Source of the DNA: Haplodiscus bocki
Taxonomy: Eukaryota
Direction: 5' to 3'
Assembly: GCA_965655095.1 (NCBI GenBank)
Contig: OZ296651.1
Span: 27,280,001-27,344,000, forward strand
Length of the DNA: 64,000 nt
The position numbers and the translations under genes are program-made. Numbering within the stretch: position 1 is the stretch's first letter; each line of letters opens with the position of its first letter. Of the stretch, positions 25,874 to 60,345 are shown piece after piece. A model generated the notes under the pieces. It saw only the letters and a list, made by a program, of their open reading frames with translations. It did no database searches and had not been told where the DNA came from.

Positions 25874-25959
25874 AAATTCGAGAAAGTGGTTTTGTAGTTA
25901 AGACCAAAAATAGGGCTGCAAAGTGTTGTATTTAATTTCATTTCTTGGTCAATAAGGTA

Positions 25960-35300: not shown

Positions 35301-38300
35301 TCACTGATTTGTTCTGGGATTTGCAGAAGAGCTTGTTGTGTATTATCAGGTGGGTTTGTGTTTGGGTCCACAGACGTCTCACTTTAGAGAGACTCAGTTT
35401 TATTCTCAATGGGGTTGTTAATATCATCCTTTTTATTTTCAGATAATTTATTTGAGTGTGAATTGGTGTTTTGTTTGTTTGACATGATATCATAAACTTT
35501 GCAAAGTAACTAGAAACATTTGAATCCAGAAGATTTCAATGAACAAGAATAAACTGTTGAAAAACTTTTTGCAGAAGATTGCATAAATGAAGTTTTGGAT
35601 TGTTGTTTATGTTTGTACACTTCAAGCAGCCAAGAATGAAAACGAAAAATCTGATGAGAGTCTAAAACATTAACTGTTTTAGAAGTTGCGTTCAAACAAA
35701 AGGTTGTTGGCAATAACAAAAAGTTATGTGAAACTGCGTTCAACCAAAAGAATGCTAGCAGAATTCAAATGAAGATTTCCATGTGAGAGTTTTTTTGTTT
35801 CAGGTAAAGATAATGACAGGGGATTAGGGATTTCAACTTATCCTATTGTTCCAGTGGGAAATGTAGCCGTGTGCTTAGTATTCTTTTTAAATATTACTAA
35901 GTACGAATGTTCAGATTTCAATAAAATGTCCCTGAAAGAAAAGTATCGTTCCAGTTTTGATAGGAAATGAGTTCTTGACATTTGAGCAGAAATTGGTTCA
36001 AGATTTTCAGTTTCAGGCAAAAAAAGTTTCTGAACCTTTCAGTCCAAAGTGTATTGTTGGTAGAGCGTTGGGCTTGAGTGATCATGGCTTTCTGAGATTG
36101 TTTGGTAAAGAAACGAAAAGAAAGGGAAATTCTTTCCAATTAGTGTGGTAAAAGAAACAGTTTTGGGGTGATCATTAAAGGAAAGTTCTAAGTTCAAGGT
36201 AAAACCTTGGATACTGATATTTTGGATGTATTTCTCAATGAATTTCGTTTTGAGGATTTTTTTTACCAGCTACTGCGAAAGGGATCATGAAAAATCTTGC
36301 TTTTGTTTCTATTGATGAGAAACAAGTTACAGAGATATATTGTTTAATTGGAACTTCAGATTGGATTGCAATAGTCAGCATTTTTGATATATTATGTTGA
36401 TCATGATTACAAACATTGAACATTTGGGGGATCATCATTTGGGTTGGTATATTCAGTACCGAAATCGATGCATCGCTATCCAATGCAAAAGCGATTTCCA
36501 GTCTTGAAGGTAAATGTGAATTAATTTTGTTCTGAGAATGAACATACAGATTGAAAATTCAGCTTGTTTGAGTTATAGTTTGTGTCATTTCAGCGGTATC
36601 CATGCTAACTTCAACTTTGTCTGCCGACTTTGAGAATCTCTCAGTGTAATGGGCATGATTTTCAGAAGAGTTGGGGGTATAATTTTTACAAATCTTCTGG
36701 ATGCCCACGCAAATCGAGAATGTGGTCTTGACCGAGGTCAAAATGAAGAATTATAATTTCTGAAGTACTCTCGGTTTCCAGAGTTGGATCAAGAAAACGA
36801 ACGATAGCGATTATTTTTGGAAAAAAGAAATGTAAAGAGATCTAGAGTTTCTTCGTTGGTTATAAAATTCAGTGTAACTTGAAGGTGATGGAATTCGTTT
36901 GGAATTGAATGCTCTATAACGATAACAATATCGAAAACGAGAAATTTTGCGTCGATCGCATGAGATTGAAAGTGATCTAAAGCAGGAGGATCGATATAGA
37001 GAATATCGATTTCTTGAATTCGAACGATTTCTCGAATCAAAACCATTGCGCGAAAGCTAGTGTATAGGATATGATGAAGGTTGTCCATTTTGATGAATTT
37101 GATTCAGGTTTGCTTTAAAGAATTGATTAATGGATTTCACAGGTGATTTCCATCGAGGATAATAATTCCGTTTTCTTTCTTCATTTTGGCGTTGTTTGCG
37201 AAAACATTTTGAAACAGAGTCATTGGATATCTGACAATATTTACAGATTCTCCGAAACTGAGGTTTACTCTTTTTTTTCCGGAAAAGTTGTTCGCGTAAA
37301 CGTGACTTCAGGATTTGGATCAGAGGTTTGAGCGGATAATTTCCGAGATTCCAGTTAGGACGTTACCTAGTTTATTTCCCGTGGTGGATCAAGAGTACGA
37401 CTTTTTTCAATCGTAATAACTTCAGAATCAACAAGCTCAACCAAGGTATGAAAAGAAACGGAAGGTTCCATAACAGTAATTTTATGATTTAGTTGCGGTT
37501 TCTGAGCAAAGTCCTCAGTTTTTTTGGTAAACCTCTAGTGAAAAAATCCTTACACTTGAGGTTAATAGTTGCAGCAGATTCATTAAACTCGCCTTTTTAA
37601 ATAATTGTTGACTTTTTAGAGCATAATAGGGTACACTTTCAGTTTACTTTTTTGTTAAGTCCTGAGCTTCAACTTGTGCATAATATACAGTTTTCTGTGA
37701 AAAAAAATGTTTTTAAATGCAGATACAAAAGCAGACCAGTCTGTTTTGTAATATCCTTGGAGTTGCGAAAACCAGCTTAACACGCTTCCAGATATTGAAA
37801 GCTGTAAATGTGACACTTTATGTTTGTGCCATTGATTATAAGATACAAGATTGAGAGGTTGTTGTCCCGTAATAAAAATCATATTGGCATCTATCTGATG
37901 TATTTTGTTCGTCAGGAGTATTTCGATGGTCAAGTCAATCGAAGGTTTTCACTGATTTGTTCTGGGATTTGCAGAGGAGCTTGTTGTGTATTATCAGTTG
38001 GGTTTGTGTTTGGGTCCACAGACGTCTCACTTTAGAGAGACTCAGTTTTATTCTCAGTGGGGTTGTTAATATCATCATTTTTATTTTCAGATAATTTATT
38101 TGAGTGTGAATTGGTGTTTTGTTTGTTTGACATGATATCATAAACTTTGCAAAGTAACTAGAAACATTTGAATCCAGAAGATTTCAATAAACAACAATAA
38201 ACTGTTGAAAAACTTTTTGCAGAAAATTGAATAAATGAAGTTTTGGATTGTTGTTTATGTTTGTACAGTTCAAGCAGCCAAGAATGAAAACGAAAAATCT

Positions 38301-40300
38301 GATGAGAGTCTAAAACATTAACTGTTTAAGAGGTTGCGTTCAAACAAAAGGTTGTTGGCAATAACAAAAAGTTATGTGAAACTGCGTTCAACCAAGAGAA
38401 TGCTAGCAGAATTCAAATGAAGATTTCCATGTGGGAGTTTTTATGATTCAGGTAAAGATAATGACAGGGGATTAGGGATTTCAACTTATCTTATTGTTCC
38501 AGTGGGAAATGTAGCCGTGTGCTTAGTATTCTTTTTAAATAATACTAAGTACGAAAGTTCAGATTTCAATAAAATGTCCCTAAAAGAAAAGTATCGTTCC
38601 AGTTTTGATAGGAAATGAGTTCTTGACATTTGAGCAGAAATTGGTTCATGATTTTCAGTTTCAGGCAAAAAAAGTTTCTGAACCTTTCAGTGCAAAGTGT
38701 ATTGTTGGTAGAGCGTTGGGCTTGAGTGATCATGGCTTTCTGAGATTGTTTGATAAAGAAACGAAAAGAAAGGGAAATTCTTTCCAATTAGTGTGGTAAA
38801 AGAAACAGTTTTGGGGTGATCATTAAAGGAAAGTTCTAAGTTCAAGGTAAAACCTTGGATACTGATATTTTGGATGTATTTCTCAATGAATTTCGTTTTG
38901 AGGATTTTTTTTACCAGCTACTGCGAAAGGGATCATGAAAAATCTTGCTTTTGTTTCTATTGATGAGAAACAAGTTACAGAGATATATTGTTTAATTGGA
39001 ACTTCAGATTGGATTGCAATAGTCAGCATTTTTGATATATTATGTTGATCATGATTACAAACATTGAACATTTGGGGGATCATCATTTGGGTTGGTATAT
39101 TCAGTACCGAAATCGATGCATCGCTATCCAATGCAAAAGCGATTTCCAGTCTTGAAGGTAAATGTGAATTAATTTTGTTCTGAGAATGAACATACAGATT
39201 GAAAATTCAGCTTGTTTGAGTTATAGTTTGTGTCATTTCAGCGGTATCCATGCTAACTTCAACTTTGTCTGCCGACTTTGAGAAGCTCTCAGTGTAATGG
39301 GCATGATTTTCAGAAGAGTTGGGGGTATAATTTTTACAAATCTTCTGGATGCCCACGCAAATCGAGAATGTGGTCTTGACCGAGGTCAAAATGAAGAATA
39401 ATATTTTCTGAAGTACTCTCGGTTGCCAGAGTTGGATCAAGAAAACGAACGATAGCGATTATTTTTGGAAAAAAGAAATGTAAAGAGATCTAGAGTTTCT
39501 TCGTTGGTTATAAAATTCAGTGTAACTTGAAGGTGATGGAATTCGTTTGGAATTGAATGCTCTATAACGATAACAATATCGAAAACGAGAAATTTTGCGT
39601 CGATCGCATGAGATTGAAAGTGATCTAAAGCAAGAGGATCGATATAGAGAATATCGATTTCTTGAATTCGAACGATTTCTCGAATCAAAACCATTGCGCG
39701 AAAGCTAGTGTATAGGATATGATGAAGGTTGTCCATTTTGATGAATTTGATTCAGGTTTGCTTTAAAGAATTGATTAATGGATTTCACAGGTGATTTCCA
39801 TCGAGGATAATAATTCCGTTTTCTTTCTTCATTTTGGCGTTGTTTGCGAAAACATTTTGAAACAGAGTCATTGGATTTCTGACAATATTTACAGATTCTC
39901 CGAAACTGAGGTTTACTCTTTTTTTTCGGAAAAGTTGTTCGCGTAAACGTGACTTCAGGATTTGGATCAGAGGTTTGAGCGGATAATTTCCGAGATTCCA
40001 GTTAGGACGTTACTTAGTTTATTTCCCGTGGTGGATCAAGAGTACGACTTTTTTCAATCGTAATAACTTCAGAATCAACAAGCTCAACCAAGGTATGAAA
40101 AGAAACGGAAGGTTCCATAACAGTAAATTTATGATTTAGTTGCCGTTTCTGAGCAAAGTCCTCAGTTTTTTTGGTAAACCTCTAGTGAAAAAATCCTTAC
40201 ACTTGAGGTTAATAGTTGCAGCAGATTCATTACCCTCGCCTTTTTAAATAATTGTTGACTTTTTAGAGCATAATAGGGTACATTTTCAGTGTCTTTTTTC
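34990..40300 (-). repeat. Two near-identical 2648-bp tandem units carrying extra leader-gag-protease modules
   Basis: ORF pairs offset by exactly 2648 bp (35007/37655, 35838/38486, 36235/38883, 36789/39437) with identical or near-identical translations. Confidence 0.93.
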
Positions 40301-42560
40301 GTTAAAGCCTGAGCTTCAACTTGTGCATAAAAAACAGTTTTCTGTCAAGTAAATTGTTTTTAAATGCAGGTACAAAAGCAGACCAGTCTTTTTTGTAAAA
40401 TTTCATGAAGTGGCAAAAAGCAGTTTAACGCGATTCAGGATAAAGAAAATTGTATAGGTGCCATTTTTTGTTTGTGCCATTGAATATAAGCTACAGGATT
40501 GAGAGGTTGTTCTCCCGTAGTAAAGATCATGTGTGTATCAATCTGATGTAATGATTCGTCAGGAGTGTTTTGTTGGTCAAGTCCATCAAAAGTTTTCATA
40601 GATTTGTTCGTCGCAACAAAAGATATGGTACGTTCTGTGTATTTACCGAAGAAGGGTTTGTTGGAGCCACAGCCGAAAGAGTTGAACGGAAAAACGCAAA
40701 AGGACCTATATTAGGTGCAGTGCGTGGTTGATATAAGGTTTCACATTGGTTTGCAGTGGTGTTTAAATTAGCATTCGTTTTGAATGGATTATTGTTGGTG
40801 CTGCTCAATGGGTGAGTATTAGCATTATTCGATTATTTTGGATTTGGTTATTATAATCAGTCAATGGATTAAATGTTGGTTCTTTCCTCTGGGTTCTATT
40901 AAATAAAAAAAATGACGGATTTGCAGTATTTTGAATATGAAATTGATGAGAAATTACACCAGAAGAGTTATCTTGAGGTTTAAACTTATTAGAAGTGTTT
41001 GGTTCAATATGAATATCAGAATTGTTTCGAATAGTTATTGTGGGAACTTGCAGTTGTTTTGTACTACCTGCTATCAGAACAGAACTGGTCGGAATGGAAA
41101 TGCCATTGACTTCAGTAGGAGATATACTTTCATTGGTTTCAGTATTGTTTATATTTGGATTTATTTTAACAGAATTTGATTGTGGTTGATGTTGGAAACC
41201 AGAACTAATAATTTGGTTTTATTCGTGAGCAGTTATTGTCTCAGTGAACGTTGAATAAATTGAACCTGTGTCATCAACATAGTGATCAACAGTTCTAGTT
41301 GCAGTGATTGCTCGTGTCTTCAGATTAGGTCAAATTTCTGATTGCAAATCAATTTCGGCATTGGTTTTGAGTAGATTATATTGTTTGGGTTGAACATGTT
41401 CAGTTTCAATCAAGAAAGGAAGTATTTTTTCTTCAGGTAGATGATTTGAGAAATTTTAAAACTGTTTCGATCTAAGGTATTCCAGATAAGTTAAAATTTA
41501 AATCGAAGAAAATTTCTCAGAAACAGAGAATAAAGTTTAATTTGTGGTTTTGTTACAATTTCTAAAACAATTAATTGAGGGAAAACGTAAAATGGAGAGC
41601 ACTTATTCGAGCAAAATCTTTCAAAAACCAGTTGTGTTGATTAGCAAATCTTTGAATTTTATCAATTTCAGAAATTTCAATAAAATATTGTATTCTGCAA
41701 AGTTTATCAATTGCAGAGGAAACAGCTACAGGTTGTTCTAAACATTCATGTAGAATCTTGCAGTTCATTCAGAAAATGTACGATTAAATCCTGAATTGCT
41801 AAATAAAAAGCTTTAGGTTTTATTGGATTTGAAAAAATTCCAGTGTTTTTTTTAACTGGGTTGAAAACAACAGTGGAAGGTACATCAGCAAAACTTGACT
41901 CAGAAGTCGTAAAATGGCTATAATAAAGATAAGAGTCACGATGTTCTCTAATCAGAGGGATTGAATAAATATCATTAAGTATTTTTCAAATGGCAGAGAG
42001 TTTGTTGAATTATATATAAAAGGTTTTCAGTGAACTTAAAAGCATAAGTAAAAAAAGCTCGTTTTTGGTTTTTGAATTTCTGCAATGATATGAAAAACCA
42101 ATGGTGTAGGAATGTAATATTCATATCATGCAACTTGTTGTGGTGGTAACTTTTCTTGATGTTGAAAGTACCATTTTAGTTTTTTTTGATAGAATTTTGT
42201 CATGTTTAATTCCAGTATCAAAAATGATTCAATTTTTGTATCAATTGAATGCGTTACAGTTCTTGTTTTCCTACAAATTGATTTGCAGCTTCACTTCTTC
42301 GTTGATGCTGTAATCGTAAACGTTCATTTTCAGTTTGAGTTTGTTCTGATGAAAAAACATCAGAGGATTGTTCTTGCATTTCTAGATATGCGTTTTGTTT
42401 TTGTCCAGCAAATTTCTTAGAATAGGAAGATTCTGGGATTTGCAGAAGGTTTTGTTGTGTATTATCAGTTGGGTGTTTTTGGTTCCACAGATGTTTAACC
42501 TTGAAGGGAGTCAGTGTTTTTCTCAGCGTCGTTGTTATTGTCATCGTTTCCATTCTCAGA
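39780..42560 (-). pseudogene. gag: gag (module 1, long form with extended N-terminal region)
   Basis: Capsid-like segment at 40300-40590 is homologous to the other modules; upstream Asn/Thr/Gln-rich decayed ORFs at 40610-42433 are absent from the other copies. Confidence 0.6.
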
Positions 42561-43971
42561 CAGAGTGTGTGAGTGTGAATTAGCAATTTGTCTGTTCGAT
42601 ATGATTTCCTGAGGAATTGAAAAAAATTGAATCCAGAAGAGTTCAATACCAAATATAAAAAGTGTTAGAACAATTCTTTGCAGAAGATTAAAGGAATGAA
42701 GCTTCAGAATGTGCGCTATATACAATTCCAGCAGCTAACAATGAAAAGTAAAATTTTATGACGGTATAAAACATTGAATTTTTGAAAACTTGCGTTCAAT
42801 CAAAAAGTTGTTGGCAATATTAAAAATTTATTTAAACTTGCCTTGTACCAGCAGATTGCTAGCAGATTTCAAATGAAAAATTCCGTGTCAGAAATTTTTT
42901 TATGGGTGGGGTTATGGATATGAGAAAATAGTCTTATTACAAGGATTGCAAAACTCTGAACAATCAAGGTTCGCGTACATTGTGTGATCAAAACCGATCG
43001 GATGATTATTGTTTTACGTTTTACAAGAGACTAGAACTTCGAAACGTAGAACAGATTTCAAAACTATCTAACATCTCTCTTATTTGACAACTAAGTCCCA
43101 GCGAAGCTTCAGGCAGTGATCTTAGCAGCCAGCCGCAGAAAAATCCAAACACGCTATGGAAAGGAACTTTCATGTGCTGTCTTTAAATCTTACGGGGTGG
43201 AAAAAGAAAAACAGGGAACCACAGCGGAGAAAACTTACTACAGAGAATGCTATGGGTTATAAGAAAGATGGAATCATGGCAACAGTAGAAAGATGTGAAG
43301 AGAAGTTTTCCTCTTCTGATCAGAGACTTGCAAAATTTTCTGAGAACAAAATTCTCAGATATTACAAAAAAACCGCAAAAAAAGGTTCAGCAGGAACGGT
43401 AATAGAAATATCAGACAGAATTGATGTAATACAGAGGTGAAATAAGAATAATTCAAAGAACTTGAAAATTTTTTTTGTTTTAGACTTTTTTTTGTTAAAA
43501 TGGTAAACTAAATTGTAGAAATAAGGCGGAATTGAAGATATAAGGAATGCTGCCCTAACAGTAGAATGTTCCAACTTCAGAGTCTAGTTTACGACACTAG
43601 AATGGAATAGAGTCATGGTCTAGGCGGGATTCAGTTAATAAAAATGACAGCGAACAAAATAGAGAAAAAATGGCCAAGTTTATAGAGCAAACGACTTTCG
43701 AAGTTTAAAGTCGAACGGACTGGAAGTTTAGAGTCAAAACAACTATCGAGTTTAAATTAAAACCAACAATTGAAATTTATGGTTCAAAAAACTGGGAATT
43801 TGAAGTCGAAACGACAGAACGAAAATTGAAGAAATTTTATTGATTTTTCCATTTTTTCGGAAAAAGATGCCCCTGAAAGATGAAGAAAAACACGTGAAAG
43901 GAAGTGTGGAAGGAGAAGGAAGAGGGGAAGTTGTTGAGAGTAAGGGTAGGGAGTCTTCACGAGGACGAAGT

Positions 43972-43989
43972 TTCACTGTCATCGCCCCA
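43972..43989 (-). promoter_or_regulatory. Primer-binding site, tRNA-Gly-like
   Basis: TGGGGCGATGACAGTGAA 3 nt inside the 5' LTR; the sister copy reads TCGTGCGTTGACAGTGAA. Confidence 0.5.
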
Positions 43990-43992
43990 AAA

Positions 43993-44287
43993 TGTACAAA
44001 TTTTTAGGTAGGTATTTGGGTTGTTGAGGTAATACTACGAGAAAGACTTGTCTAGACCTAAAGGTATTGCTACAACTTGATGTTATCTTGCGTACGCTAA
44101 TTTTTCTAAATTTTCTTAGCAGTTCTGTTCAGAAAACAAATTTTTTCTACTTCGAAAAAACTTCAACTTTAAATATATGTCTGGATCGTAAATTTTCATG
44201 AAAAGTTAAAAATAAGAATTGTAAATAGAGTTGAATGTTGTCCAATGACAATTCAAGAACTTCTTCTCTAATTGTGTGAGTATAACA
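43993..44287 (-). repeat. 5' LTR of family B element
   Basis: TG...CA termini, 295 bp, homologous to the five other LTR copies, adjacent PBS. Confidence 0.85.
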
Positions 44288-46060
44288 AAATTTCAATTTT
44301 TCTGAGCGTTGCGCGAAAAGTAGAGTATCTTTCACAAATAATTTCGAGCATCGTTGTCGAAAGCGCATTCTATGTGTCTAGAGGAGCTTTTCGAGCAAAA
44401 GTCTTTCTGAAAAGAAAATTTTTTTCAGTCTTTTTTGGAGTGTGCGCGCAAATTATTCGGAGTTTGGATAAAAACTCTCGGCCTGGATTTTCATCATTTC
44501 AATCTATTTTCCAGAGAAACCTTTTGAAGACATTTTCTTTTGACTCTAAAAATTTTAGCACTCTCGGTGAACAGTTTTAGACTTTTCACGTAAATTTTCC
44601 GGCAGGGTTGTCAAATCTGCAATCTTCAAGTCGAGAGAAAATTTTTGAGGAAGGACCTTTTCGTGTCTGACATTCGATAGGTCTCAGGTTTTTCCACAGC
44701 GCAAGGGAAAGATTAACGCACTGTTCAATTCAACTTCGAACTTTTCGGCAGTTTTGTTGAACTGCATTTTAGGTGTTTGAAGGAACAGTTTGAGGAATTT
44801 TTGTCAGGAATGTAAATATTTCTGACTTCTTTCCGTCTGGTGAGCAATGAATTATTGGTATGGAGCAGAAACTGCAGATTAGTGAATACTGCAATCTACG
44901 TGCCTAGAGGAAGGTTCTGAATGGGTTTTTTGTGCAAAACATTTTCTTTTTTTCGGGAAACTAAGCAATAAATTTTCGACATTCACTGGCAAAAGTGGGC
45001 AGGGTTGTCCAAGTTGCGTTAAATGTATCTTGAGGAATTTTTTGAGGGCAAAATTTAGTATTTTTGTTTTCGGACTCTGCTGGAAAAAGTTCCAACTTTT
45101 GTCGGAAATTGTTCGGCAGCTCTGTCAAAACTGCATTCTCCCTGTCAAGGTATTTTTTCTGAGGAATAGTTTTTTTGTGACGAACTTTCAGAACTTTTCT
45201 ATCCCGGTTTTTGCGGAAAAGTGTAGAGGATTCTTGAAGTAGAAAACTGGGCTTCGTCGAGGAAACAGTTTAGTTTTGAGGAAGGATCTTTTCTCATCTA
45301 ACATTCATGATGTTTTCATATTTTGCAGGAGAAATTCAATTTTTGGTAAAAACTTTTCAGCAAGGATGTCAAAACTGCATTACTAAAATCCAAAGGAAGT
45401 TTGTAAGGTTTTTAAGTTTGATTTCTTTTGGAAAAAATGATGCATGGTATTCAGGCTGTCAGCGAAAAATTTTGGGACAACTGGCACAAAAAAAGTCTTC
45501 AAGGTTACCAAAACCCTGCATTCCACGTGGCCAGACAAACATTTGAGGACAAAGGCTTATTGAGAAAATTAGTTTTTTTGCACTTGGTTACATTAGTATT
45601 CCAATTTTTGTGGTAATTGTGCGACAGTGTGGTCAAAAGTGACTTCTACCTGTCCAGTGACCATTTCTGTGGATTTTAGTTTTTTTAAGATTTTTTCATT
45701 ACCATGTCGTTCCCTTCCGAATCTTTGGGAAAAATTTAAAAGAGTTTCGACGTTGCCAAACCGGCAGCAACGTCGAAACGAAACTTCCCTGTATGTGTCC
45801 AGAGGATCATTTTGTGGATCTTTTAGAAGAAGACTAAATAGGTTCCAGTCATTTTGGGACTTTGTACAAAAAATATCTGCCGGGATTATGATAGTAATAT
45901 TCCACAATTCCAGAAAAACATTTTTTGAGGAAATTTACTTTCGAATCTAAATATTTTCCTGCTTTGAGCGATTAGTAATTGACTTTTGACGTAAAGTTTT
46001 CAGCTGACTTGTCAAATCCGCGATCATTGCATAGAAGGGAAAAGCTTTGAGAGAGGATTT

Positions 46061-46353
46061 TGTAACACATACACATTTAGATAAGAAATTCCTAAAAAAT
46101 CAATCCACAAAATGGAACTCCGATTAAATTTCTTATTTGAGACTTTTATCGACTATTTTTGATCTAGATGTAAAACTAGAGTTGACGCTTTACCCGAGCA
46201 GAGAGTAATTGTTCTCAAGAAACCTGCTGAGAAAACTTCGAAAAATTAGCGTACGCAAGGTAATATCGAGCTATGGCAATACCATCAAGTCTAGACAAGT
46301 CTCTTTGTAGAATTAACATAACAACCTAACTAGCTACCTGAAAAGTTAATACA
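46061..46353 (+). mobile_element. Solo LTR, family B
   Basis: TGTAACACATACAC...AAAAGTTAATACA, 293 bp; no PBS follows. Confidence 0.85.
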
Positions 46354-47266
46354 ATCATTCAATCTTTTTGTATCTAATTTTCAGAAAGATTCAAGTTTTT
46401 CCGAAGCTGGGGGAGGAATTAAAGCTTTTTCCACTTTGGCCCTAAAAAATTAGTCCGCTGAGTCGAAACTGCAGTTTAGATTTTTCGAGGAACTCTTTGG
46501 GGAATTTTTGACCAAAAGTTAAAACTTTCTGACGTTTCTTCTGATTAAATGCATTGAACTATCGGTATGGTTTGAAAAAAAGCAGTGTAATGAAAACTGC
46601 AATCTACGTACCAAGAGAAAGGTTCTGAAAAAAATTTCCCGTTGCCATTTGTTTTTTTGGAATATGAGCAATAAAAAGAAACATCCTTGGCGAAAAAGTG
46701 GCATGGGTTGTCCAGGCTGCGTTCCATGTGTCCGGCGGACTTCTGTGAGGACAATAATTTTACCAGAAAAATATTGTGTAAAAGTTTTAGTACTATGCTG
46801 CAAAGAAAACCAATTTCTGTCGCAAAATATTCGGCAGTGTTGTCAAAACCGGAGTCTACGTCTCCCGAGAAAATTCGAAGGAATAACTTTTCCTAGCATT
46901 TTTTCACGAACATTTTGTTGTCCCTTTTTTTCTGGGAAAAATTAGAGACATTTCGACTGAAAAATTTGGCTGCAGCGCCGAAACTGCCTTCTATTTTATC
47001 GAGGGAACATTTTGGGGATAAAATTTTCGAAGAAAACTAATTAAATTCCAGTCACTTTGGGACCTTGGACAAAAAATGTCTGCAGGGATTATGATAATAC
47101 AATTCTACAATTCCAAAAAAAAACCATTTTTGAGGACGTTTTCTTTTGAATTTTTTTATTTTCCTACTCTGAGCGATTAAAGTTTGACTTTTGACGTAAA
47201 ATTTTCCGCAGAGTTGTCGAAACTGCAATCTTTGTAACGAAGGAGAAAAATTTTAAGAGATGACTT

Positions 47267-47562
47267 TGTAACACATACACATTCAGAGAAGAATTTCTTG
47301 AAAAATCATTGAACAAATTGTAACTCTCTTCACATTTCTTTTTTGAGACATTTCATGAACATTTTTGATCTAGACGTAAATCTAGAGTTGAAATATTATC
47401 CAGTTAGAGAAAACTTGTTTTCTTGAGAGAACTGCCGAGAAATTTTTGAGCTTTTAGCGTACGCAAGGTAGCATCGAGTTTTAGCATTACCATCAATTCT
47501 AGACAAGTCTCTTTTTTGGAATTCAAATAACAACCTAACTAGCTACTTGAAAAGTTAATACA
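47267..47562 (+). mobile_element. Solo LTR, family B
   Basis: TGTAACACATACAC...AAAAGTTAATACA followed by ATCTTTTCGTATC (satellite resumes). Confidence 0.85.
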
Positions 47563-48472
47563 ATCTTTTCGTATCTAACTTTCAGAAAGATTCATGTTTT
47601 TGCGTAGCTGGGGGAGGAACAAACTCACTTTTCACTTTGGCCCTAAAAAATTAGTTCGCTGAGTCGAAACTGCAGTTTAGGTTTTTCGAGGAACTCCTTG
47701 AAGAATTTTTGACCAAAAGTTAAAAGTCTCTGACCTTTCTTCTGATTAAATGCATTGAATTATCGGTATGGTTTGAAAAGGGCAGTGTTGTAGAAACTGC
47801 AATCTACGTGCCAAGAGAAAGGTTCTGACGAAGTTTTCTTGTTGACAGTTTTTCAATCTTTTTTTTGGAATATCAGCAATATATTTCAATCTCCTTGGAA
47901 AAAAGTGAGCTGGGTCGTCCAAGCTGCGTTCCATGTGTCCAGCGAACTTTTGTGAGGACAACGGTTTTACCGAAAAAATATTTTCTAAAAGTTTTAGTAC
48001 TATGCTGCAAAGAAAACCAATTTCTGTCGCAAAATGTTCGGCAGTGTTGTCAAAACTGGAATCTACGTCTCCAGAGAAGTTTCAGAGGAATGATTTCTTC
48101 AACATTTTTTCACTAACTTTCCACTTTTTTCCAAAATTTGGGAAAATTTCAGATGAGTTTCGATGTACAAAAAATGGCAGCAACTTCGAAACTGCCCTCT
48201 AAGTGTCCAGAGGAACATTTTAAGCATTAACTTATCGCAGAAGACTAATTAGTTTCTAGTCACTTTGGGAAGTTGTACAAAAAAACATCTGCCGGTATTA
48301 TGATAAAACAATTCCACAATTCCGGAAAAACTTTTTCTGGGACATTTCCTTTCGAATCTAACTATTTTCCCACTCTGAGCGATTCGTGTTTTACTTTTGA
48401 CGTAAAATTTTCAGCAGAGTTCTCAAAACCGCAAAATATGCATGGAAGGGAAAGGGCTCTGAGAGAAGATCT

Positions 48473-48769
48473 TGTAACACATACACATTTAGAGAAGAAT
48501 TTCCTGAAAAATCTTTGGAAAGATTGTACTTCTGTTTGTTATTTTTAATTATGACTGTTCATGACAATTTTTGATCTAGATATAAAACTACAGTTGAAGT
48601 TTTATCCAGCTAGAGAATAGTTTTTTTCTCGAGAGAACTGCTGAGAAGTCTTTGAAAATTTAACGTACGCAAGGTAACATCGAAATTTGGCAATAGCATA
48701 AAGTCCAGACAAGTCTCTTTCGTAGTAATAACATAACAACGTAACTAGCCACTTGAAAAGTTAATATCA
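48473..48769 (+). mobile_element. Solo LTR, family B
   Basis: Preceded by GAAGATCT; TGTAACACATACAC...AAAAGTTAATATCA. Confidence 0.85.
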
Positions 48770-51439
48770 ACTTTTCGTAGTTAACTTCAAAAGGGTCCAA
48801 GTTTTTTCAGAGCTCGGGACTAATTATTGAAATTTCCACTTCGACTTTTAGAAATTATTCAGCTAAGTCGAAACTGCTTTTTAAATGTTTCAAAGAGCAC
48901 ATTGAGGAGTTTTTTGACCGAAAGTTAATTGTTTCTGACTTCTCCTTGGACTAATAGCATTGAAGTATCGGTATGGTTTGAAAAAAGGCATTGAAGTGAA
49001 AACTGTAATCTGCGTGCCAAGAAAGGGGTTCAGACAAAGTTGTCTCGTTGACAATTTCCAATCTACTTTGGAATTTGAGCAAAAAAAATCGATTTATTTG
49101 GGGAAAAAACCGAGCTGCGTTGTCCAAACCACGTTCCTTATGTCCCGAGAATTTTTTTAAAGACAACATTTTCCCGGAAAATTTAGTTTCTAAATATTTC
49201 AGTCCTTAGCTGCAAAGAAAACCAATTTTTGTTGAAAAATGTTGGGCAGTGTTGTCAAAACTGGAAACTAAGTCTGGAGAGAAATTTCAGCGGATTAATA
49301 TTTTCCAAAATTTTTTGATCAAATTTTCGTTTGTTTTCCGATCTCCTGGGAAAAATAGAGCAATTTCGAGTTAAAAGTTTCGCAGCAACGTCGAAACTGC
49401 CTTCTATGTGCAGATGAACTTTTCGAGGAAAAACTTTTCGATCAAAATTAATTAGGTTCCGGTCACTTTTGGACTTCGAGCAAAAAAAACCCTGGAATTT
49501 TCACAAAAATTTTCGACAATTCCAGAAAAACGTTTTTTGAGGACATTTCCTTTGGAGTTTAATTATTTTCCTACTCTGAGCGTTTGGTGTATGGCTTTTG
49601 AGGTAAAGTTTTCGGCAGAGTTGTTGAAATTGCAATCCATGTATGGAAGCGAAAAACTTTGAGCGAGGAACATGTAGCACATACTCATTTGGAGAAGAAT
49701 AACGTGAAAAATCATTGGGGAAAACGTAGTTCTGTTTTATTTTCCTACTTATCAATGTTCATGAATTTTTCTGATGTGTATATAAATCTAGAGTTGAAGT
49801 ATTGTCCAAGTATAGAATAGTTGTCTTCTCAAGAAAACTGCTGATAAATCTCAGAATGTTTAACGTGCGCAAAGTAATATCGAGTTGTAGCAATACCATC
49901 AAGTCTAGAAAAGTCTAATGTCTACCTAAAAAACTTTTGGATTTTCGTGCGTTGACAGTGAAAATTCATCCTCGTCAACCTTCTCTACCTTCACTCTCAA
50001 CAACTTCCTCCTTTCTTTCTCCTTCTGCAATTCCTGTCACGTGTTTTTCTTCAAATTTCAGACGTCTTTTTCCGAAATGTTCGAAAAGACAATAAATTTT
50101 TGCTGCATTTTTCTTTCAGTTGTTTCAACTTCAAACTTCAAGTCCTTGGGACTTTAAACTTCGAAAGTCGTTTCGACTAAAAACTTGGGCATCTTTTCTA
50201 CGTTTCTGTTCGCTATCAGTCTTAGTAACTGAATCCTGCCTAGACCCTGGGTCTAATTCACTGTAGATTCGTAAAATACACCTTCAGCTTAGAACATTCG
50301 ATTGTTAAGGCAGCATTTCTTTATTCTTTTGTTCCACCCTATTTCTATAATTCACTTTATAATATTTATAAAAAAAGTCGACAACAAAAAGTTTCTCATT
50401 TCTTCTGAAACTTTCATGTTCCACATCTGTAGCCACAAATTGTCCCTCTTAATTTTCTTTTACCATTTCCACTGACTCTTTTCTCATACTATAACCTCTG
50501 ATTGGTTTCATACGCAAAGTTTTTCGCTATTTTCTGGTGAAAAATTTTCATTCCATGGACGATTTTTTTTCAAACTATCTTCCTCTTGCAACGATTTCAC
50601 CTTTCATGTAACCCAAAACATTCATTGTAAGTAGTTTTCTCCTCCGTGGCTCCCTATATTTCCGTTTCCACCCCCTAAGAATTAAAAACAGGATATGAAA
50701 TTTATTTCGCCCGGAGTTCATGGAGTTTTCTGTTGCTGACAACTAAGATCATTTCCTAAAACTTCGTTCAGAACTATTTGCCAACGAAGAGAGATCCTAG
50801 ATAATAATGAATCTGTTCTCCCTGTCAAAGTTCCATTGTCTTATAAAACGCAAATGTAAAATTTTCTGATCAGTATTGATCAGAAATTGTGTGCGAACGT
50901 TGAATATTGAGAGTTTCGCAATCTTTGTCTGAAAAGTATAATCCCCTGTCATTATCTTTACCTGAAACAAAAAAACTCTCACATGGAAATCTTCATTTGA
51001 ATTCTGCTAGCATTCTTTTGGTTGAACGCAGTTTCACATAACTTTTTGTTATTGCCAACAACCTTTTGTTTGAACGCAACCTCTTAAACAGTTAATGTTT
51101 TAGACTCTCATCAGATTTTTCGTTTTCATTCTTGGCTGCTTGAACTCTACAAACATAAACAACAATCCAAAACTTCATTTATGCAATCTTCTGCAAAAAG
51201 TTTTTCAACAGTTTATTCTTGTTCATTGAAGTCTTCTGGATTCAAATGTTTCTAGTTACTTTGCAAAGTTTATGATACCATGTCAAACAAACAAAACACC
51301 AATTCACACTCAAACAATTTATCTGAAAATAAAAATGATGATATTAACAACCCCACTGAGAATAAAACTGAGTCTCTCTAAAGTGAGACGTCTGTGGACC
51401 CAAACACAAACCCAACTGATAATACACAACAAGCGCCTC

Positions 51440-52330
51440 TGCAAATCCCAGAACAAATCAGTGAAAACCTTTGATTGACTTGACCATCGAAATACTCCTG
51501 ACGAACAAAATACATCAGATTGATGCCAATATGATTTTTATTACGGGACAACAACCTCTCAATCTTGTATCTTATAATCAATGGCACAAACATAAAGTGG
51601 CACATTTACAGCTTTCTATATCTGGAAGCGTGTTAAGCTGGTTTTCGCAACTCCATGGAAATTACAAAACAGACTGGTCTGTTTTTGTATCTGCATTTAA
51701 AAACATTTTTTTTTCACAGAAAACTGTATATTATGCACAAGTTGAAGCTCAGGACTTAACAAAAAAGGAAACTGAAAACCTACGTCATTATTTCTAAAAA
51801 GTCAACCATTAGTTGAAAAAGCTGGTGTAATGAATCTGCTGCAACTAATACCTTCAAGTGTAACAAACTTTTCAGTGGAGGATTAGCAAAAAAACTGACA
51901 GACTTAGCTCAAAAACGACAAATTAGTCACACATCTACTGTTATTGAATCTTCCATTCCGTTTCCTATCTTGGTTAAGCTTGTTGATTCTGAATATTTTA
52001 CAAATGAAGAAGTTCGTACTCTTGATCCACCACTGGAAACTAATACTGTCAGAACAAAATTGGATTCTAAAAATCTATCTGCTGAAAGTTATGATCCGAA
52101 TCCCGTGATCATGTTTAAAAAAACAACTGTACCGAATAAAAAGAATAAAACCCCTTTTTGGGAGAAACTGTAAATATTGTCACAAATCCAGTCACTCTCG
52201 TTCAAATTGTTTTCGCAAACAACGCCAAAATGAAGAAAGAAAACGGAATTATTATCCTCGATGGAAATCACCTGTGAAATCCATTAATCAATTCTTTAAA
52301 GCAAACCTGAATCAAATTCATCAAAATGGA
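51440..52330 (+). pseudogene. gag: gag with CCHC zinc knuckle
   Basis: FSQKTVYYAQVEAQDLTKKETENLRHY; CKYCHKSSHSRSNC (C-x2-C-x4-H-x4-C) at 52169-52210. Confidence 0.82.
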
Positions 52331-52849
52331 CAACCTTCATCATATCCTATACACTAGCTTTCGCGCAATGGTTTTGATTCGAGAAATCGTTCGAATTCAA
52401 GAAATCGATATTCTCTATATCGATCCTCTTGCTTTAGATCACTTTCAATCTCATGCGATCGACGCAAATTTTCTCGTTTTCGATATTGTTATCGTTATAG
52501 AGCATTCAATTCCAAACGAATTCCATCACCTTCAAGTTACACTGAATTTTATAACAAACGAAGAAACTCTAGATCTCTTTACATTTCTTTTTTCCAAAAA
52601 TAATCGCTATCGTTCGTTTTCTTGATCCAACTCTGGAAACCGAGAGTACTTCAGAAATTATAATTCTTCATTTTGACCTCGGTCAAGACCACATTCTCGA
52701 TTTGCGTGGGCATCCAGAAGATTTGTAAAAATTATACACCCAACTCTTCTGAAAATTATGCCCATTACACTGAGAGCTTCTCAAAGTCGGCAGACAAAGT
52801 TGAAGTTAGCATGGATACCACTGAAATGACACAAGCTATAACTCCAACA

Positions 52850-55730
52850 AAATGAATTTTCAATCTGTATGTTCATTCTCAGAACAAAATTAGTTCACAT
52901 TTACCTTCAAGACTGGAAATCGCTTTTGCATTGGATAGCGATGCATCGATTTCGGTACTGAATATACCAACCCAAAAGATGATCCCCCAAATGTTCAATG
53001 TTTGTAATCATGATCAACATAATATATCAAAAATGCTGACTATTGCAATCCAATCTGAAGTTCCAATTAAACAATATATCTCTGTAACTTGTTTCTCATC
53101 AATAGAAACAAAAGCAAGATTTTTCATGATCCCTTTCGCAGTAGCTGGTAAAAAAAATCCTCGAAACGCCATTCATTGAGAAATACATCCAAAATATCAG
53201 TATCCAAGGTTTTACCTTGAACTTAGAACTTTCCTTCAATGATCACCCCAAAACTGTTTCTTTTACCACACTAATTGGAAAGAATTTCCCTTTCTTTTCG
53301 TTTCTTTATCAAACAATCTCAGAAAACCATGATCACTCAAGCCCAACGCTCTACCAACAATACACTTTGCACTGAAAGGTTCAGAAACTTTTTTTGCCTG
53401 AAACTGAAAATCATGAACCAATTTCTGCTCAAATGTCAAGAACTCATTTCCTATCAAAACTGGAACGATACTTTTTTTAGGGACATTTTATTGAAATCTG
53501 AACTTTCGTACTTAGTATTATTTAAAAAGAATACTAAGCACACGGCTACATTTCCCACTGGAACAATAGGATATTTTGAAATCCCTATTACCACTGTCAA
53601 ACCATCTCATCAAAAAATTAATCATTTAAAAACACTCTTTCATTCGGTAGTTCCTACCTACTATCCTGAAACAACTGAACCAATTAATTTTCATTATCAG
53701 GAGATCCAACAACAAAGAACAATTTTTTTCGAAGTTAATCATAAAGATCTGTATAAAGATCTAATCCATAAAACTATTCTGTAAAGTTCAACCGTCTCAG
53801 AATTTAGCTCCACGAGTATATCAACTTTTACCATAATTTGAAGAAAAGTAACAGTTTCCGAAAAACATTCCTATTCAAAAATCTGATCTCATTGATTCTG
53901 AATTCATTCGACTCTGGAAAGTTCATGTTGAAAAAAACACTCTCATGCTACACATCGTAATGGTCTCGGAAAATTTTTTACTGAAATAAAGAATTAGATT
54001 ATAACCTATTGCTTAACTTCAAACACAGAGACCATCTAAAGTTCTTATTCATTATCGCGACAAATTGAATGTTTTATTGGATGGATTAAGAAAAACTGGA
54101 ATGAAAAAACAATTTGGGTCCCCACCCCATAAAAAACCAAACTAAGGAACCACGCTTCTGAATGCTTTGATTTTCATCAGAAAGAATGATTCTTATAAAA
54201 TTATGTTGGATGCCCGACATCTCAAATCAAAAACTGATCAGTCATTTGAATCTTGGCCACAAGAAATTCAACAACACAGCTTGCTAGAGCAAAAAGAAAA
54301 CATAAATCTACGAATTATCTTATGTATGCATATGCACATGCTACCTTAGATAATAAAACTACCAAGCTAACTGGATTTTCGTCTGGTGATAAACCTTTTG
54401 CTTTCCTCAGAAGACTTTCATGGCTTTAATGGTTTTCCAATTTTTTTCGCACAACAAATGTCACTGTTTTTGAAAGACTTGATTCGTCAAGGATCTGCAC
54501 TGGTTTATATTGATGACATTCTGCTCATTTCAGAGTCTTAACCATATATGTTGCAACTTATCAAAAGAAATCATAAAATTGCTTTAAAAAATCTGAAATT
54601 AGCTACTGAAAAGTCTTTCTTCATTCTTCGTGCTGTAAAAACTCTTCTCTGTCATGAAATTGGTTTTGAAAGAATTAAACCAATTCAATCCAAATTTGCT
54701 GCACGTCATAAAATTCCTTCTCCGACTACAAAATTGAACTGATAAAGATCATTGGCTCAATGAACTTTTTTTCTGAAATATTTGATAAAAATGAAGTTAA
54801 TATGAACTGTATGATTTACTCTATGACAATATTGGATTTCACTGGAAGATTGAACTGAAAACAATCTTTGAACAAAATAAAACTTCTATTACAAAAGATG
54901 TTGTTCTGACACTACCCAATACGAACCATCCTTTCGTTATTAGTTTAGATTCTCCTTTAAATGGTACAGACTGTCCTATTCCAAGTGAATGATAAGGGAA
55001 AACTGGATATTGTTTAATATTTTTCGCTCATTTTCACCACTCATGAAAAAAACTCTGTGCAACATATCTTGATTTAATCGGAATCGTATATTCACTGACA
55101 ATATACGAAGATAACTTTACTGGCCCTGATCATTTCATTAATGTTTCGAAAAATCGTAAGCCAATCCTTAGCTGTTTCACAAAGAACTGAAACCTTTCTC
55201 CAATATTCTACACTGCACAAATGCAATTAACTTAATTTCAGAAACTTCGTAATAATTATACGACCAAAAATCCTTCCATAGCTAATTTGCCGAGCCATTC
55301 TTTTACCCAAAAGAACTGCAACTGAATCAACTAAAACAGAAACAAATACCTCTCTAAACACTGACGCATGATAACCAAAACAAACCTGTACACTATCTGG
55401 TCAAACATGAAACTGTATTTCCTTCACAAAAAGACAATCATCATCGTATTTTAGCTGCTTTCGTAAACGATCATTTCTCCATTCATTATCACTGACAAAG
55501 GAGAAAATATCAAAATTAAAACCACTAAGTTCCTTTTCCGTTGAAGCTGTCAAACCCTTTCAAAGTCAATATAAAAATCCAATCACGAAAAATACTGAAA
55601 CATTTTTACAACAATCTGCAATTTTGAATGATACCGACATCACTGACAACGATGATCTTATTGAAAAAAGTATACCACGACTAACTCGCTGACTAATTCT
55701 CCATCTACCTCTGAAAAGTTTATTGACTCT
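52850..55730 (+). pseudogene. pol: pol: protease, RT, RNase H (no integrase)
   Basis: LDSDASISVLN; MLDARHLKS; LVYIDDILL (~54500); LTLPNTNHPFVISLDS; many stops and frameshifts. Confidence 0.88.
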
Positions 55731-56295
55731 GAAATAGTTCGGCTCATTGCATTAAGTTTGGGGATAGTTCGGCTCATCGTATTAAGACAGAGAGCAATGT
55801 ATTAGATACGCAAAACAGTAGTGTTGCCCGAGTTCGGCAATGTAATAAGATAGATCAAAAGGTTTTGCAACGTTTGAAAATAGCGATTCGGGCCCAATTT
55901 CGTTAATGTGTGACAACATTATTCGCACTCAAGGACGTTGTTTTAACAAAGCGATTGATTTTCGGTAATGTCCGAAGAATGGGAGTAACTTTCAGTAACG
56001 TACTAGTATGGACTTTAGGGTTTTCTAACGTATAAAGTACGGAGTGAGGTTTTTGGCACTCTGAGAATACTTATTTCTCCAAAAAATGGTTTTTCCCAAG
56101 AAAAGTCCTGATATATCTGACGCTGGGCACCAACCGTGCGGATAGCTTATTACGTCTGCGGCTAATTTTTACGACGGCAGATGCTGTTTTGACGTGATGC
56201 AATAGGAAAAGATTGTTTCGTAATATATTAGGACAGGGCATAGTGCAACACAGCTTGCCAGAGCAATTAAAAAACCTAAATCTACGAATGATCTT

Positions 56296-57700
56296 ATGCA
56301 TGCATATGCAAATGCTACCTTAGATGATGAAACTATCAAGCTGACTGGATTTTCGCCTGGTGATAAACCTTTTGCTTTCCTCAGAAGATTTCATGGCCTT
56401 AAAGGTCTTCCAAACTTTTTCACAGAACAAATGTCACTGTTTTTGAAAGACTTGATTCGTCGTGGATCTGCACTGGTTTATATTGATGATATTCTGCTCA
56501 TTTCAGAGTCCTAACCACATATGTTGCAACTTATCAAAAGAAATCAAAAAATTGCTTTAAAAAATATGAAATTAGCTACTGAAATGTCTTTCTTCATTCT
56601 TCGTGCTGTAAAAACTCTTCTTTGTCATGAAAATGTTTTTAAAAGAATTGAACCAATTCAATCCAAATTTGCTGCACGTCATAAAATTACTTGTCGGACT
56701 ACAAAAAAAGGAACTGATAAAGAGCATTGGCTCAATGAACTTTTTTCTGAAATTTTTGATGAAATTCAAGTTAATATGAAGTCTCTGTATGATTTACTCA
56801 ATGACAATATTGGATTTTACTGGAAGATTGAACTGAAAACAATCTTTGAACAAAATAAAACTTCTATTACAAAAGATGTTGTTCTGACACTACCCAATAC
56901 GAACCATCCATTCGTTATTAGTTTAGATTCTCCTTTAAATGGTACAGACTGTCCTATTCCAAGTGAATGATAAGGGAAAACTGGATATTGTTTAATATTT
57001 TTCGCTCATTTTCACCACTCATGAAAAAACCTCTGTGAAACATATCTTGATTTAATCGGAATCGTATATTCACTGACAATATACGAAGATAACTTTACTG
57101 GCCCTGATCATTTCATTAATGTTTCGAAAGATCGTAAGCCAATCCTTAGCTGTTTCACTAAGAACTGAAACCTTTCTCTTATATTCTACACTGCACAAAT
57201 GCAATTAACTTAATTTCAGAAACTTCGTAATAATTATACGACAAAAAATCCTTCCATAGCTAATTTGCCGAGCCATTCTTTTACCCAAAAGAACTGCAAC
57301 TGAATCAACTAAAACAGAAACAAATACCTCTCTAAACACTGACGCATGATAACCAAAACAAACCTGTACACTATCTGGTCAAACATGAAACTGTATTTCC
57401 TTCACAAAAAGACAATCATCATCGTATTTTAGCTGCTTTCGTAAACGATCATTTCTCCATTCATTATCACTGACAAAGGAGAAAATATCAAAATTAAACC
57501 ACTAAGTTCCTTTTCCGTTGAAGCTGTCAAACCCTTTCAAAGTCAATATAAAAATCCAATCACGAAAAATACTGAAACATTTTTACAACAATCTGCAATT
57601 TTGAATGATACCGACATCACTGACAACGATGATCTTATTGAAAAAAGTATACCACGACTAACTCGCTGACTAATTCTCCATCTACCTCTGAAAAGTTTAT
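56296..57700 (+). pseudogene. pol: Duplicated RT-RNase H fragment
   Basis: FHGLKGLPNFFTEQM...LVYIDDILL; LTLPNTNHPFVISLDS. Confidence 0.85.
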
Positions 57701-58272
57701 TGACTCTGAAATAGTTCGGCTCATTGCATTAAGTTTGGGGATAGTTCGGCTCATCGTATTAAGACAGAGAGCAATGTATTAGATACGCAAAACAGTAGTG
57801 TTGCCCGAGTTCGGCAATGTAATAAGATAGATCAAAAGGTTTTGCAACGTTTGAAAATAGCGATTCGGGCCCAATTTCGTTAATGTGTGACAACATTATT
57901 CGCACTCAAGGACGTTGTTTTAACAAAGCGATTGATTTTCGGTAATGTCCGAAGAATGGGAGTAACTTTCAGTAACGTACTAGTATGGACTTTAGGGTTT
58001 TCTAACGTATAAAGTACGGAGTGAGGTTTTTGGCACTCTGAGAATACTTATTTCTCCAAAAAATGGTTTTTCCCAAGAAAAGTCCTGATATATCTGACGC
58101 TGGGCACCAACCGTGCGGATAGCTTATTACGTCTGCGGCTAATTTTTACGACGGCAGATGCTGTTTTGACGTGATGCAATAGGAAAAGATTGTTTCGTAA
58201 TATATTAGGACAGGGCATAGTGCAACACAGCTTGCCAGAGCAATTAAAAAACCTAAATCTACGAATGATCTT

Positions 58273-59695
58273 ATGCATGCATATGCAAATGCTACCTTAG
58301 ATGATGAAACTATCAAGCTGACTGGATTTTCGCCTGGTGATAAACCTTTTGCTTTCCTCAGAAGATTTCATGGCCTTAAAGGTCTTCCAAACTTTTTCAC
58401 AGAACAAATGTCACTGTTTTTGAAAGACTTGATTCGTCGTGGATCTGCACTGGTTTATATTGATGATATTCTGCTCATTTCAGAGTCCTAACCACATATG
58501 TTGCAACTTATCAAAAGAAATCAAAAAATTGCTTTAAAAAATATGAAATTAGCTACTGAAATGTCTTTTTTCATTCTTCGTGCTGTAAAAACTCTTCTCT
58601 GTCATGAAATTGTTTTTAAAAGAATTGAACCAATTCAATCCAAATTTGCTGCACGTCATAAAATTACTTCTCGGACTACAAAAAAAGGAACTGATAAAGA
58701 GCATTGGCTCAATGAACTTTTTTTCTGAAATTTTTGATGAAATTCAAGTTAATATGAAATCTCTGTTTGATTTACTCAATGACAAAATTGGGTTTCACTG
58801 GAAGATTGAACTGAAAACAATCTTTGAACAAAATAAAACTTCTATTACAAAAGATGTTGTTCTGACACTACCCAATACGAACCATCCATTCGTTATTAGT
58901 TTAGATTCTCCTTTAAATGGTACAGACTGTCCTATTCCAAGTGAATGATGAGGGAAAACTGGATATTGTTTAATATTTTTCGCTCATTTTCACCACTCAT
59001 GAAAAAAACTCTGTGCAACATATCTTGATTTAATCGGAATCGGATATTCATTGACAATATACGAAGATAACTTTACTGGCCCTGATCATTTCATTAATGT
59101 TTCGAAAGATCGTAAGCCAATCCTTAGCTGTTTCACAAAGCTGAAACCTTTCTCCAATATTCTACACTGCACAAATGCAATTAACTTAAATCCAGAAACT
59201 TCGTAATAATTATACGACAAGAAAACCCTTCCATAGCTAATTTGCCAAACTATTCTCTTACCCAAAAAGAACTGCAACTGAATCAACCAAAACAGAAACA
59301 AATACCTCTCTAAACTCAATTTGCAACACTGACACGTGATAACCAAAATAAACCTGTACACAATCTGGTCAAACATGAAACTGTATTTCCTTCACACAAA
59401 AGCGATCGTCATCGTATTTTAGCTGCTTTCGTAAACGATCATTTTTCCATTCATTATCACTGACAAAGGAGAAAATATCAAAATTAAACCACTAAGTTCA
59501 TTTTCCGTTGAAGCTGTCAAACCCTTTCAAAGTCAATAACAAACCCAATCACGAAAAATACTGAAACATTTTTACAACAATCTGCAATTTTGAATGATAC
59601 CGACATCACTGATAACGATGATCATATTGAGAAAAGTATACCACGACTAACTCGCTGACTAATTCTCCATCTACCTCTGAAAAGTTTATTGACTC
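58273..59695 (+). pseudogene. pol: Duplicated RT-RNase H fragment
   Basis: Same motifs as the 56296 copy. Confidence 0.85.
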
Positions 59696-60194
59696 TGAAA
59701 TAGTTCGGCTCATTGCATTAAGTTTGGGGATAGTTCGGCTCATCGTATTAAGACAGAGAGCAATGTATTAGATACGCAAAACAGTAGTGTTGCCCGAGTT
59801 CGGCAATGTAATAAGATAGATCAAAGGATTTTGCAACGTTTGAAAGTAGCGATTCGGGCCCAATTTCGTTACTGTGTGACAACCTTATTTGCACTCAAGG
59901 ACGTTGTTTTAACAAAGCGATTGATTTTCGGTAATGTCCGAAGAATGGGAGTGACTTTCAGTAACGGACTAGTATAGACTTTAGGGTTTTCTTACGTATA
60001 AAGGTACGGAGTGGGGTTAAATGATTCGTTTTTGGCACTCTGAGAAGACTTTTTTCTCGAAAAAATGAGCTTTTCCTAAGAAAGTTCCTCATTTACCTGA
60101 CGCTGGCCACCAACCGTGCGGATAGTTTGTTACGTCGGCGATTAATTTTTACGACTGCAGATACTGTTTTGACCTGATGTCATGGGAAAGGTCT

Positions 60195-60345
60195 TTTGGT
60201 AAGATATTAAGATAGGGCAAAGTGCGGTAATGTCTTTAGATGAGGTTTAGATCGGCAATGTACTAAGATAGGGAAAAGTCCGGTAATGTATTAAGATAGG
60301 GTGTACTTCGGCAATGTATTAAGTTGGGGTCTATCTCAGTAATTC
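60195..60345 (+). repeat. ~28-bp minisatellite (TTCGGCAATGTATTAAGATAGGG-like)
   Basis: About five degenerate units; related units at 55733-55855, 57710-57832 and 59700-59822. Confidence 0.65.

Follow-up and report, generated by a model that had tools for sequence, protein, structure and literature searches.

Four long terminal repeats (LTRs) of one retrotransposon family occupy the same position in successive units of a satellite array within a 64,000-nucleotide stretch of the Haplodiscus bocki genome (GenBank assembly GCA_965655095.1, contig OZ296651.1, positions 27,280,001 to 27,344,000 of the forward strand; hereafter the window, with coordinates counted from its first base). From sequence comparison, all four LTRs most likely derive from a single integration that was copied together with its satellite flank, and the outcome is best read as a short array of 1.2-kb LTR+satellite units that is now dead. 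The initial annotation of the locus had offered two explanations: that one insertion was absorbed into the satellite and amplified with it, or that the integrase repeatedly targeted one satellite site. Co-amplification gains support from a 22-bp deletion, a strongly supported clade of flanks, the matched divergence of LTRs and flanks, and a recombinant unit boundary.

The host satellite consists of diverged monomers of ~130 bp arranged in a higher-order repeat (HOR) of seven. It went undetected by Tandem Repeats Finder, which reported only 10 short arrays; the monomers were located by a position matrix and classed by similarity, and the letters A-J are our own labels. The array reads BCDEFG ABCDEFG HIJEFG ABCDEFG ABCDEFG ABCHIJ[M]EFG and continues as ABCD(G)HIJEFG[L1] ABCDEFG[L2] ABCDEFG[L3] ABCDEFG[L4][P], where L1-L4 are the four LTRs, M is a minus-strand element of the same family, P is the body of the plus-strand element, and (G) is a partial monomer at 45240.

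As first reported, the LTRs start at 46061, 47267, 48473, and 49673 (spacing 1206, 1206, and 1200) and share one monomer site: all lie on the plus strand at the identical position in monomer G, ~51 bases past the monomer anchor. Their first bases are TGTAAC in L1-L3 and TGTAGC in L4, and the ~0.91-kb HOR described between them is one 7-mer each time (913, 910, and 904 bp). Because satellite comes directly after each of L1-L3 (293-296 bp), these three are solo LTRs; L4 runs into pieces of an untranslated region (UTR), gag, reverse transcriptase (RT), and RNase H. The earlier description of three solo LTRs and a fourth that opens a proviral copy holds, with the qualification that the proviral body is decayed, truncated, and devoid of an integrase match. 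A self-search of the window found six LTR copies, namely, L1-L4 and a further pair on the minus strand (18217-18512 and 43993-44287), the latter being the 3′ and 5′ LTRs of the minus element (M3 and M5, respectively). TG starts L1-L4 and M5, TA starts M3, and CA ends L1, L2, M5, and M3.

To the left of the LTRs stand ATTT, ACTT, ATCT, and AACA, and to the right ATCA, ATCT, and AACT. The 4-bp ATCT duplication proposed earlier fits the filled and empty sites only when they are considered jointly (the empty site at 17411-17432 reads as originally quoted); it has decayed, and a perfect pair is found at none of the LTRs. In the ATCA case, ATCT comes 8 bases further on, and an 8-bp near-duplication across the right junction of L1 (46354-46361) parts that LTR from its ATCT. 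Each HOR holds 33-44 ATYT 4-mers, both strands counted. By our own arithmetic, the chance of three further insertions at the same site and on the same strand would be ~(1/36)^3 even if ATYT were obligatory, and random independent insertion was rejected on this basis.

Flanking satellite and the origin of the four LTRs

Comparison of the satellite on either side of the LTRs establishes common descent of the flanks. A 22-bp E-F stretch is absent from all four LTR-bearing left flanks and kept in all six aligned empty units, from which the partial G at 45240, lacking E-F, was left out. The E-to-G distance is 233-239 in filled units versus 254-258 in empty ones; since two older units at 11-13 kb have the long distance (257 and 261), the short E-F form is derived. 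Even after removal of gappy columns, the left flanks of all four filled units group in a single clade (support 100/100), and trees joining the left flank of L1 or of L4 to an empty unit were rejected (approximately unbiased test, p-AU 5e-7 and 3e-4, respectively). Nine diagnostic columns are common to the four filled flanks, the highest count among 210 four-member groups (the next has 3). The three right flanks likewise form a clade at 100/100 against five empty ones. In each of the six pairs, the divergence of the LTRs was indistinguishable from that of E-F-G (19-27%; Fisher p 0.15-0.77), as expected if the two were copied together.

The order of the monomers adds a further line of evidence. 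L1 is preceded by H-I-J-E-F-G and L2-L4 by D-E-F-G. The J monomer of the first unit (J45631) is only 60-61% like the three D monomers, against 74-87% when the D monomers are compared with one another, so the shared unit starts at E; the similarity of unit 1 to the other units climbs from E onward. Each internal HOR thus resembles a fusion between the A-B-C-D found to the right of the insertion and the E-F-G found to its left, the hybrid anatomy that an unequal exchange offset by one HOR would produce. In addition, divergence between units 1 and 2 is low along a tract of ~0.5-0.6 kb (77/615 versus 157/570 mismatches; none of 200 permutations was as strong), which marks one later exchange.

A history in keeping with these features would begin with one Ty3/gypsy element entering monomer G once and duplicating ATCT. 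An unequal exchange offset by one HOR, with its point near the D/J-to-E boundary, would have paired satellite to the right of the element with satellite to its left, leaving two copies of the insertion separated by the hybrid 7-mer that is observed. Either before or after this exchange, LTR-LTR recombination would have cut one copy to a solo LTR, and the ~1.2-kb direct repeat would have grown by unequal exchange to three solo units and one with the element body. A later exchange or conversion refreshed the ~0.5-0.6 kb between units 1 and 2, after which the array would no longer have been homogenised and would have decayed, with no evident function.

The suggestion that a new composite satellite unit had arisen was overstated. 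The LTR was most likely absorbed and copied with the HOR; however, the composite units number only 3.5, are 72-86% identical, and give no indication that homogenisation continues. In read contigs at 85% likeness, the summed depth of several bins within the units is only 97-140, compared with ~41 for unique contigs (X1). On these figures, the array does not qualify as an established composite satellite family. Older, more diverged composite loci may possibly exist elsewhere in the genome.

Table 1. Coordinates of the LTRs, elements, and satellite segments discussed in the text.
Feature	Positions	Strand	Remarks
L1, solo LTR	46061..46353	+	293 bp, TGT...ACA
L2, solo LTR	47267..47562	+	296 bp
L3, solo LTR	48473..48768	+	296 bp; ends in TC instead of CA
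L4, 5′ LTR of plus-strand element	49673..49935	+	~261 bp; deletion near 3′ end; TTTTGG next
Decayed body of plus element, assigned to Ty3/gypsy	49936..60225	+	UTR, gag, RT, RNase H; RT/RNase H triplicated (1975-bp period)
Minus element, same family	18217..44287	-	In monomer J; 5′ LTR 43993-44287, 3′ LTR 18217-18512; RT-RNase H-integrase
Left flank of putative original insertion	45736..46060	+	E-F-G short form (22 bp deleted), preceded by H-I-J
HOR1, A-B-C-D-E-F-G	46354..47266	+	913 bp; starts with 8-bp junction duplication
HOR2	47563..48472	+	910 bp; A-D part 14% diverged from that of HOR1, 25% from that of HOR3
HOR3	48769..49672	+	904 bp; third inter-LTR 7-mer
Empty satellite array, comparison set	13100..18216	+	7-mer ABCDEFG, 6-mer HIJEFG; five unfilled G sites
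Empty satellite, in phase past minus element	44288..45735	+	Two unfilled G sites, ~44655 and ~45287

Opposing evidence and competing histories

Several observations weigh against a single integration. The 296-column LTR tree, in which only the two LTRs of the minus element lie outside L1-L4, has no well-supported branch (L1-L3, 64/44; L1-L4, 80/78), so the congruence check of LTR against flank trees proposed initially was only half informative. Counts of informative sites over the LTRs did not separate L1-L4 either, and a tree joining L4 to M5 was not rejected (p-AU 0.21). L4, at 72.8-75.7% identity to L1-L3, is as distant from them as the LTRs of the minus element (71.9-75.3%); all 15 LTR pairs fall between 70 and 80%. 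The left- and right-flank trees order units 1-3 differently, and extra exchanges are needed as a result. Moreover, adjacent satellite units are often related anyway, and flank kinship alone is compatible with insertion into an already amplified variant. The tract shared by units 1 and 2 is clear in the satellite and weak into the LTR (12/108 versus 15/108 and 21/109 mismatches); it argues only weakly that LTR and satellite were exchanged in one piece, the LTR part being short and conserved. The window contains neither the right junction nor the 3′ LTR of the full element. Finally, since both insertions of the family in the window lie in satellite and the duplication of the minus element resembles ATCT, a loose regional or sequence preference of the family is possible.

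The position of L4 could instead reflect a mixed history, in which the flanks and L1-L3 were co-amplified and the body behind L4 came from another element, joined to a fourth solo LTR by ectopic recombination between LTRs. L4 is an outlier (73-76% to L1-L3, versus 78.5-79.5% among L1-L3), and its grouping with M5, as noted, withstands rejection. The remaining 3′ end of L4 is 82% like M5 and 59-71% like L1-L3, although this comparison spans 17 columns, which are too few, and no clear switch point appeared in 80-column windows. This history would also account for the satellite ending at L4, and neither a 3′ LTR nor satellite follows the L4 body within the window. However, a 5′ LTR that split first from the solo lineage would likewise be an outlier, and the LTR divergence of L4 matches that of its left flank in three of three pairs. 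A mixed history is regarded as unlikely.

Under repeated targeting, an empty short-E-F HOR variant would have been amplified first, and the integrase would then have used the same base in four consecutive units, three of them going solo independently. The lack of resolution in the LTR tree would accommodate this, as would the flanks of units 1-3, whose divergence slightly exceeds that of the LTRs in four of six comparisons, none significantly. The flank motif GAG-A/C-GA occurs in all filled sites and is absent from the empty ones, and the ATTT duplication of the minus element (read on its own strand), which resembles ATCT, and the satellite location of both insertions point the same way. On the other hand, four insertions in one orientation and three separate solo events would be required, with all seven equivalent G sites in the window left empty; five of these have ATCT or a one-base variant. 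As stated initially, the minus element does lie in the same satellite; its host monomer is J, however, and it runs in the opposite direction. ATYT is abundant in every HOR, LTR and flank ages match, and the intact relative described below carries no Pfam chromodomain. On the evidence of this window, repeated targeting of the G site, the second of the initial explanations, is highly improbable.

A broader alternative is only slightly less remote: the 1.2-kb LTR+HOR unit would be the relic seed of a composite satellite at other loci, or else the product of nucleotide-precise targeting of the short E-F subtype. In the latter case, the family integrase would read the subtype junction GAGAGA..ATCT and fill four consecutive units at one and the same nucleotide. 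Such targeting, if real, would represent a nucleotide-precise, satellite-subtype-specific LTR retrotransposon with a sequence-specific integrase for one satellite subtype.

The arrangement could also have arisen as an assembly artefact, with one LTR-satellite junction falsely duplicated in tandem in a region rich in repeats. Contigs were examined from four public runs (two samples, one study), which contained 95-98% of the sampled words and may include the data behind the assembly itself. X1 and X2 contigs cover 43507-46808, 46799-47579, 48006-48508, and 48480-49982 with 0 differences at a depth of 33-44, and contigs of all four runs match with 0-2 differences at unique (single-copy) depth. 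Among the pieces listed, six of the seven LTR-satellite junctions are bridged by at least 31 letters; the right junction of L2 is passed by just 17, and 47580-48005 falls outside these pieces. A search of the read contigs for empty alleles covered 15 joints, none of which bypasses an LTR, with 1058 more joints outside that view. The artefact was rejected in view of the zero-difference contigs at single-copy depth and the 14-27% differences between units, which far exceed error rates; its probability is practically negligible.

Comparison with known systems

In potato, the Sobo monomer reportedly consists of an LTR plus satellite. A recent preprint reported an array in the wasp Anoplius nigerrimus (iyAnoNige.349) with five same-strand Gypsy LTR elements and identical duplications, interpreted as one integration copied by host recombination; equivalents comprise 11 LINEs in Porphyrio and six retroviruses in Cervus (bioRxiv 10.64898/2026.09.17.752431). 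Those copies are described as intact and of high identity (bioRxiv 10.64898/2026.09.17.752431), whereas the present locus has three solo LTRs exactly one HOR apart and 20-27% diverged. In human LTR arrays, an LTR6A insertion is found in each HOR, and ~6-kb units consist of transposable element fragments and Acro satellite (PMC2588610). The likeness lies in an inserted LTR fixed in each higher-order unit and in the joint amplification of element and satellite by unequal crossing over; unlike here, the human arrays are larger and more homogeneous, and their host repeat is itself LTR-derived (PMC2588610). In human alpha-satellite HOR arrays, L1HS and Alu insertions were duplicated with the HOR and tag its expansion (PMC12350169). 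Those insertions are non-LTR, recent, and polymorphic, in contrast to the old LTR element described here (PMC12350169).

Related cases are known from plants. LTR sequence is part of the maize tandem repeats CRM1TR and CRM4TR (PMC3648361), which are wholly element-derived (LTR and UTR), whereas the present unit joins a whole solo LTR to a pre-existing HOR in only 3.5 copies. In rye, solo LTRs are enriched at pSc200/pSc250 junctions and flank the arrays; here, the solo LTR lies inside the repeated unit (PMC4857426). Recombination and gene conversion, the drivers proposed for maize and rye, are a point of likeness (PMC3648361; PMC4857426). A review covers satellites derived from transposable elements more broadly (PMC12628747).

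Centrophilic elements such as CRM, Athila, and Tal1 are described as young insertions whose target-site duplications are mostly unshared (bioRxiv 10.64898/2026.09.17.752431). The present family resembles them in its assignment to Ty3/gypsy and in the satellite location of both window insertions. It differs in the age of its copies and in the single site and single duplication common to the four LTRs, and independent insertions seen in the window number two. In the two features compared, duplications and youth, the locus does not behave like centrophilic insertion, the duplication being shared and the 15 LTR pairs being too diverged.

With its common strand, site, and duplication, and with flank descent and age in agreement, the locus belongs with host-recombination copies of one insertion. 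The process is already known from arrays of a wasp, a bird, a deer, and humans, and the locus adds an example rather than a mechanism. It stands out by its age, by the reduction of three copies to solo LTRs, and by a spacing of strictly one HOR. Such a spacing of solo LTRs was not described in the titles and abstract openings of the literature searched, which supports no claim of absence, and closer solo-LTR cases may be present in the figures or supplements of the preprint (10.64898/2026.09.17.752431). As a dated tag, the LTR makes the recombinant HOR boundary, the expansion to four, one later exchange, and the arrest readable as steps. More generally, same-site LTR clusters in satellites should be counted as one insertion and not as evidence of targeting.

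The retrotransposon family and other duplications in the window

A 96-aa RT frame retrieved 67 relatives among 378 candidates, including P0021, an intact polyprotein with the order RT, RNase H, integrase. P0021 maps colinearly on the minus element through integrase and on the plus element through RNase H only; from this domain order and mapping, the LTR family is assigned to Ty3/gypsy. Of the 98 open frames that reach at least 90 aa, 58 were compared with Pfam and gave four matches: one above cut-off, Retrotrans_gag at ~51600 in the plus element, and three weak ones, the RT and RNase H matches in the window being under the curated cut-off. The plus element is interrupted by stops and frameshifts, with no integrase match in the P0021 mapping and no 3′ LTR within the window. 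The two LTRs of the minus element are 74.6% identical. No Pfam chromodomain was present in P0021 or in the frames behind the integrase of the minus element. TTTTGG stands directly after both 5′ LTRs (L4 and that of the minus element), with no tRNA matched to it, and the stretch ahead of the 3′ LTR of the minus element is not purine-only. In metagenome contigs, the LTR motif and the satellite motif each gave 0 matches, and viral contigs gave no match to P0021. At 49780-49860, the summed contig depth is ~18,000 from at least 85 contigs, versus ~41 for unique sequence; this is not a copy number, and it suggests that the LTR family is large in the present genome.

The two elements also appear to have exchanged sequence, to judge from a UTR-gag block of 2.65 kb in the plus element (50939-53599) that is copied, inverted, into the minus element (35826-40609). 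The inverted copies differ from the plus block at 20/1200 and 24/1200 positions and share a frameshift; the minus element's own block differs at 207/1194 and is without the frameshift. Since these blocks are near-identical while the LTRs of the two elements are only 70% alike, the elements look like old neighbours in inverted orientation that exchanged sequence recently. Between the integrase and the 3′ LTR of the minus element lie ~11 kb (18513-29400) with a strong plus-strand G>C skew and no Pfam match in the frames tested, representing either nested material or a 3′ region of unusual length. Within this 3′ region, 24791-27076 is an old tandem duplication (period 1176 bp, 70%).

Besides the LTR+HOR array, the window holds five kb-scale tandem duplications, with periods of 1134, ~2640, 1176, 2650, and 1975 bp. 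They hit satellite and element sequence alike, so duplication is a general process in this neighbourhood; the LTR+HOR array ranks among the older ones and bears no sign of recent exchange. In the satellite, 13365-17447 forms a 2638-bp super-repeat (7+6+7 monomers) at 75% identity, with the A-B-C of 13851 and 16490 being 85% alike, and 11055-12967 is an old tandem duplication (period 1134 bp, 69%) of a satellite variant that has diverged further. At 10190-10984, the left edge of the satellite adjoins an integrase C-terminal fragment related to P0021 (30%), and a weak integrase-core match lies further left at 4136-5089. In the plus element, 54272-60225 is a tandem triplication with a 1975-bp period and 92-100% identity, whose unit comprises an RT/RNase H piece and ~550 bp without a P0021 match; it ends in a 28-bp minisatellite at 60205-60330.

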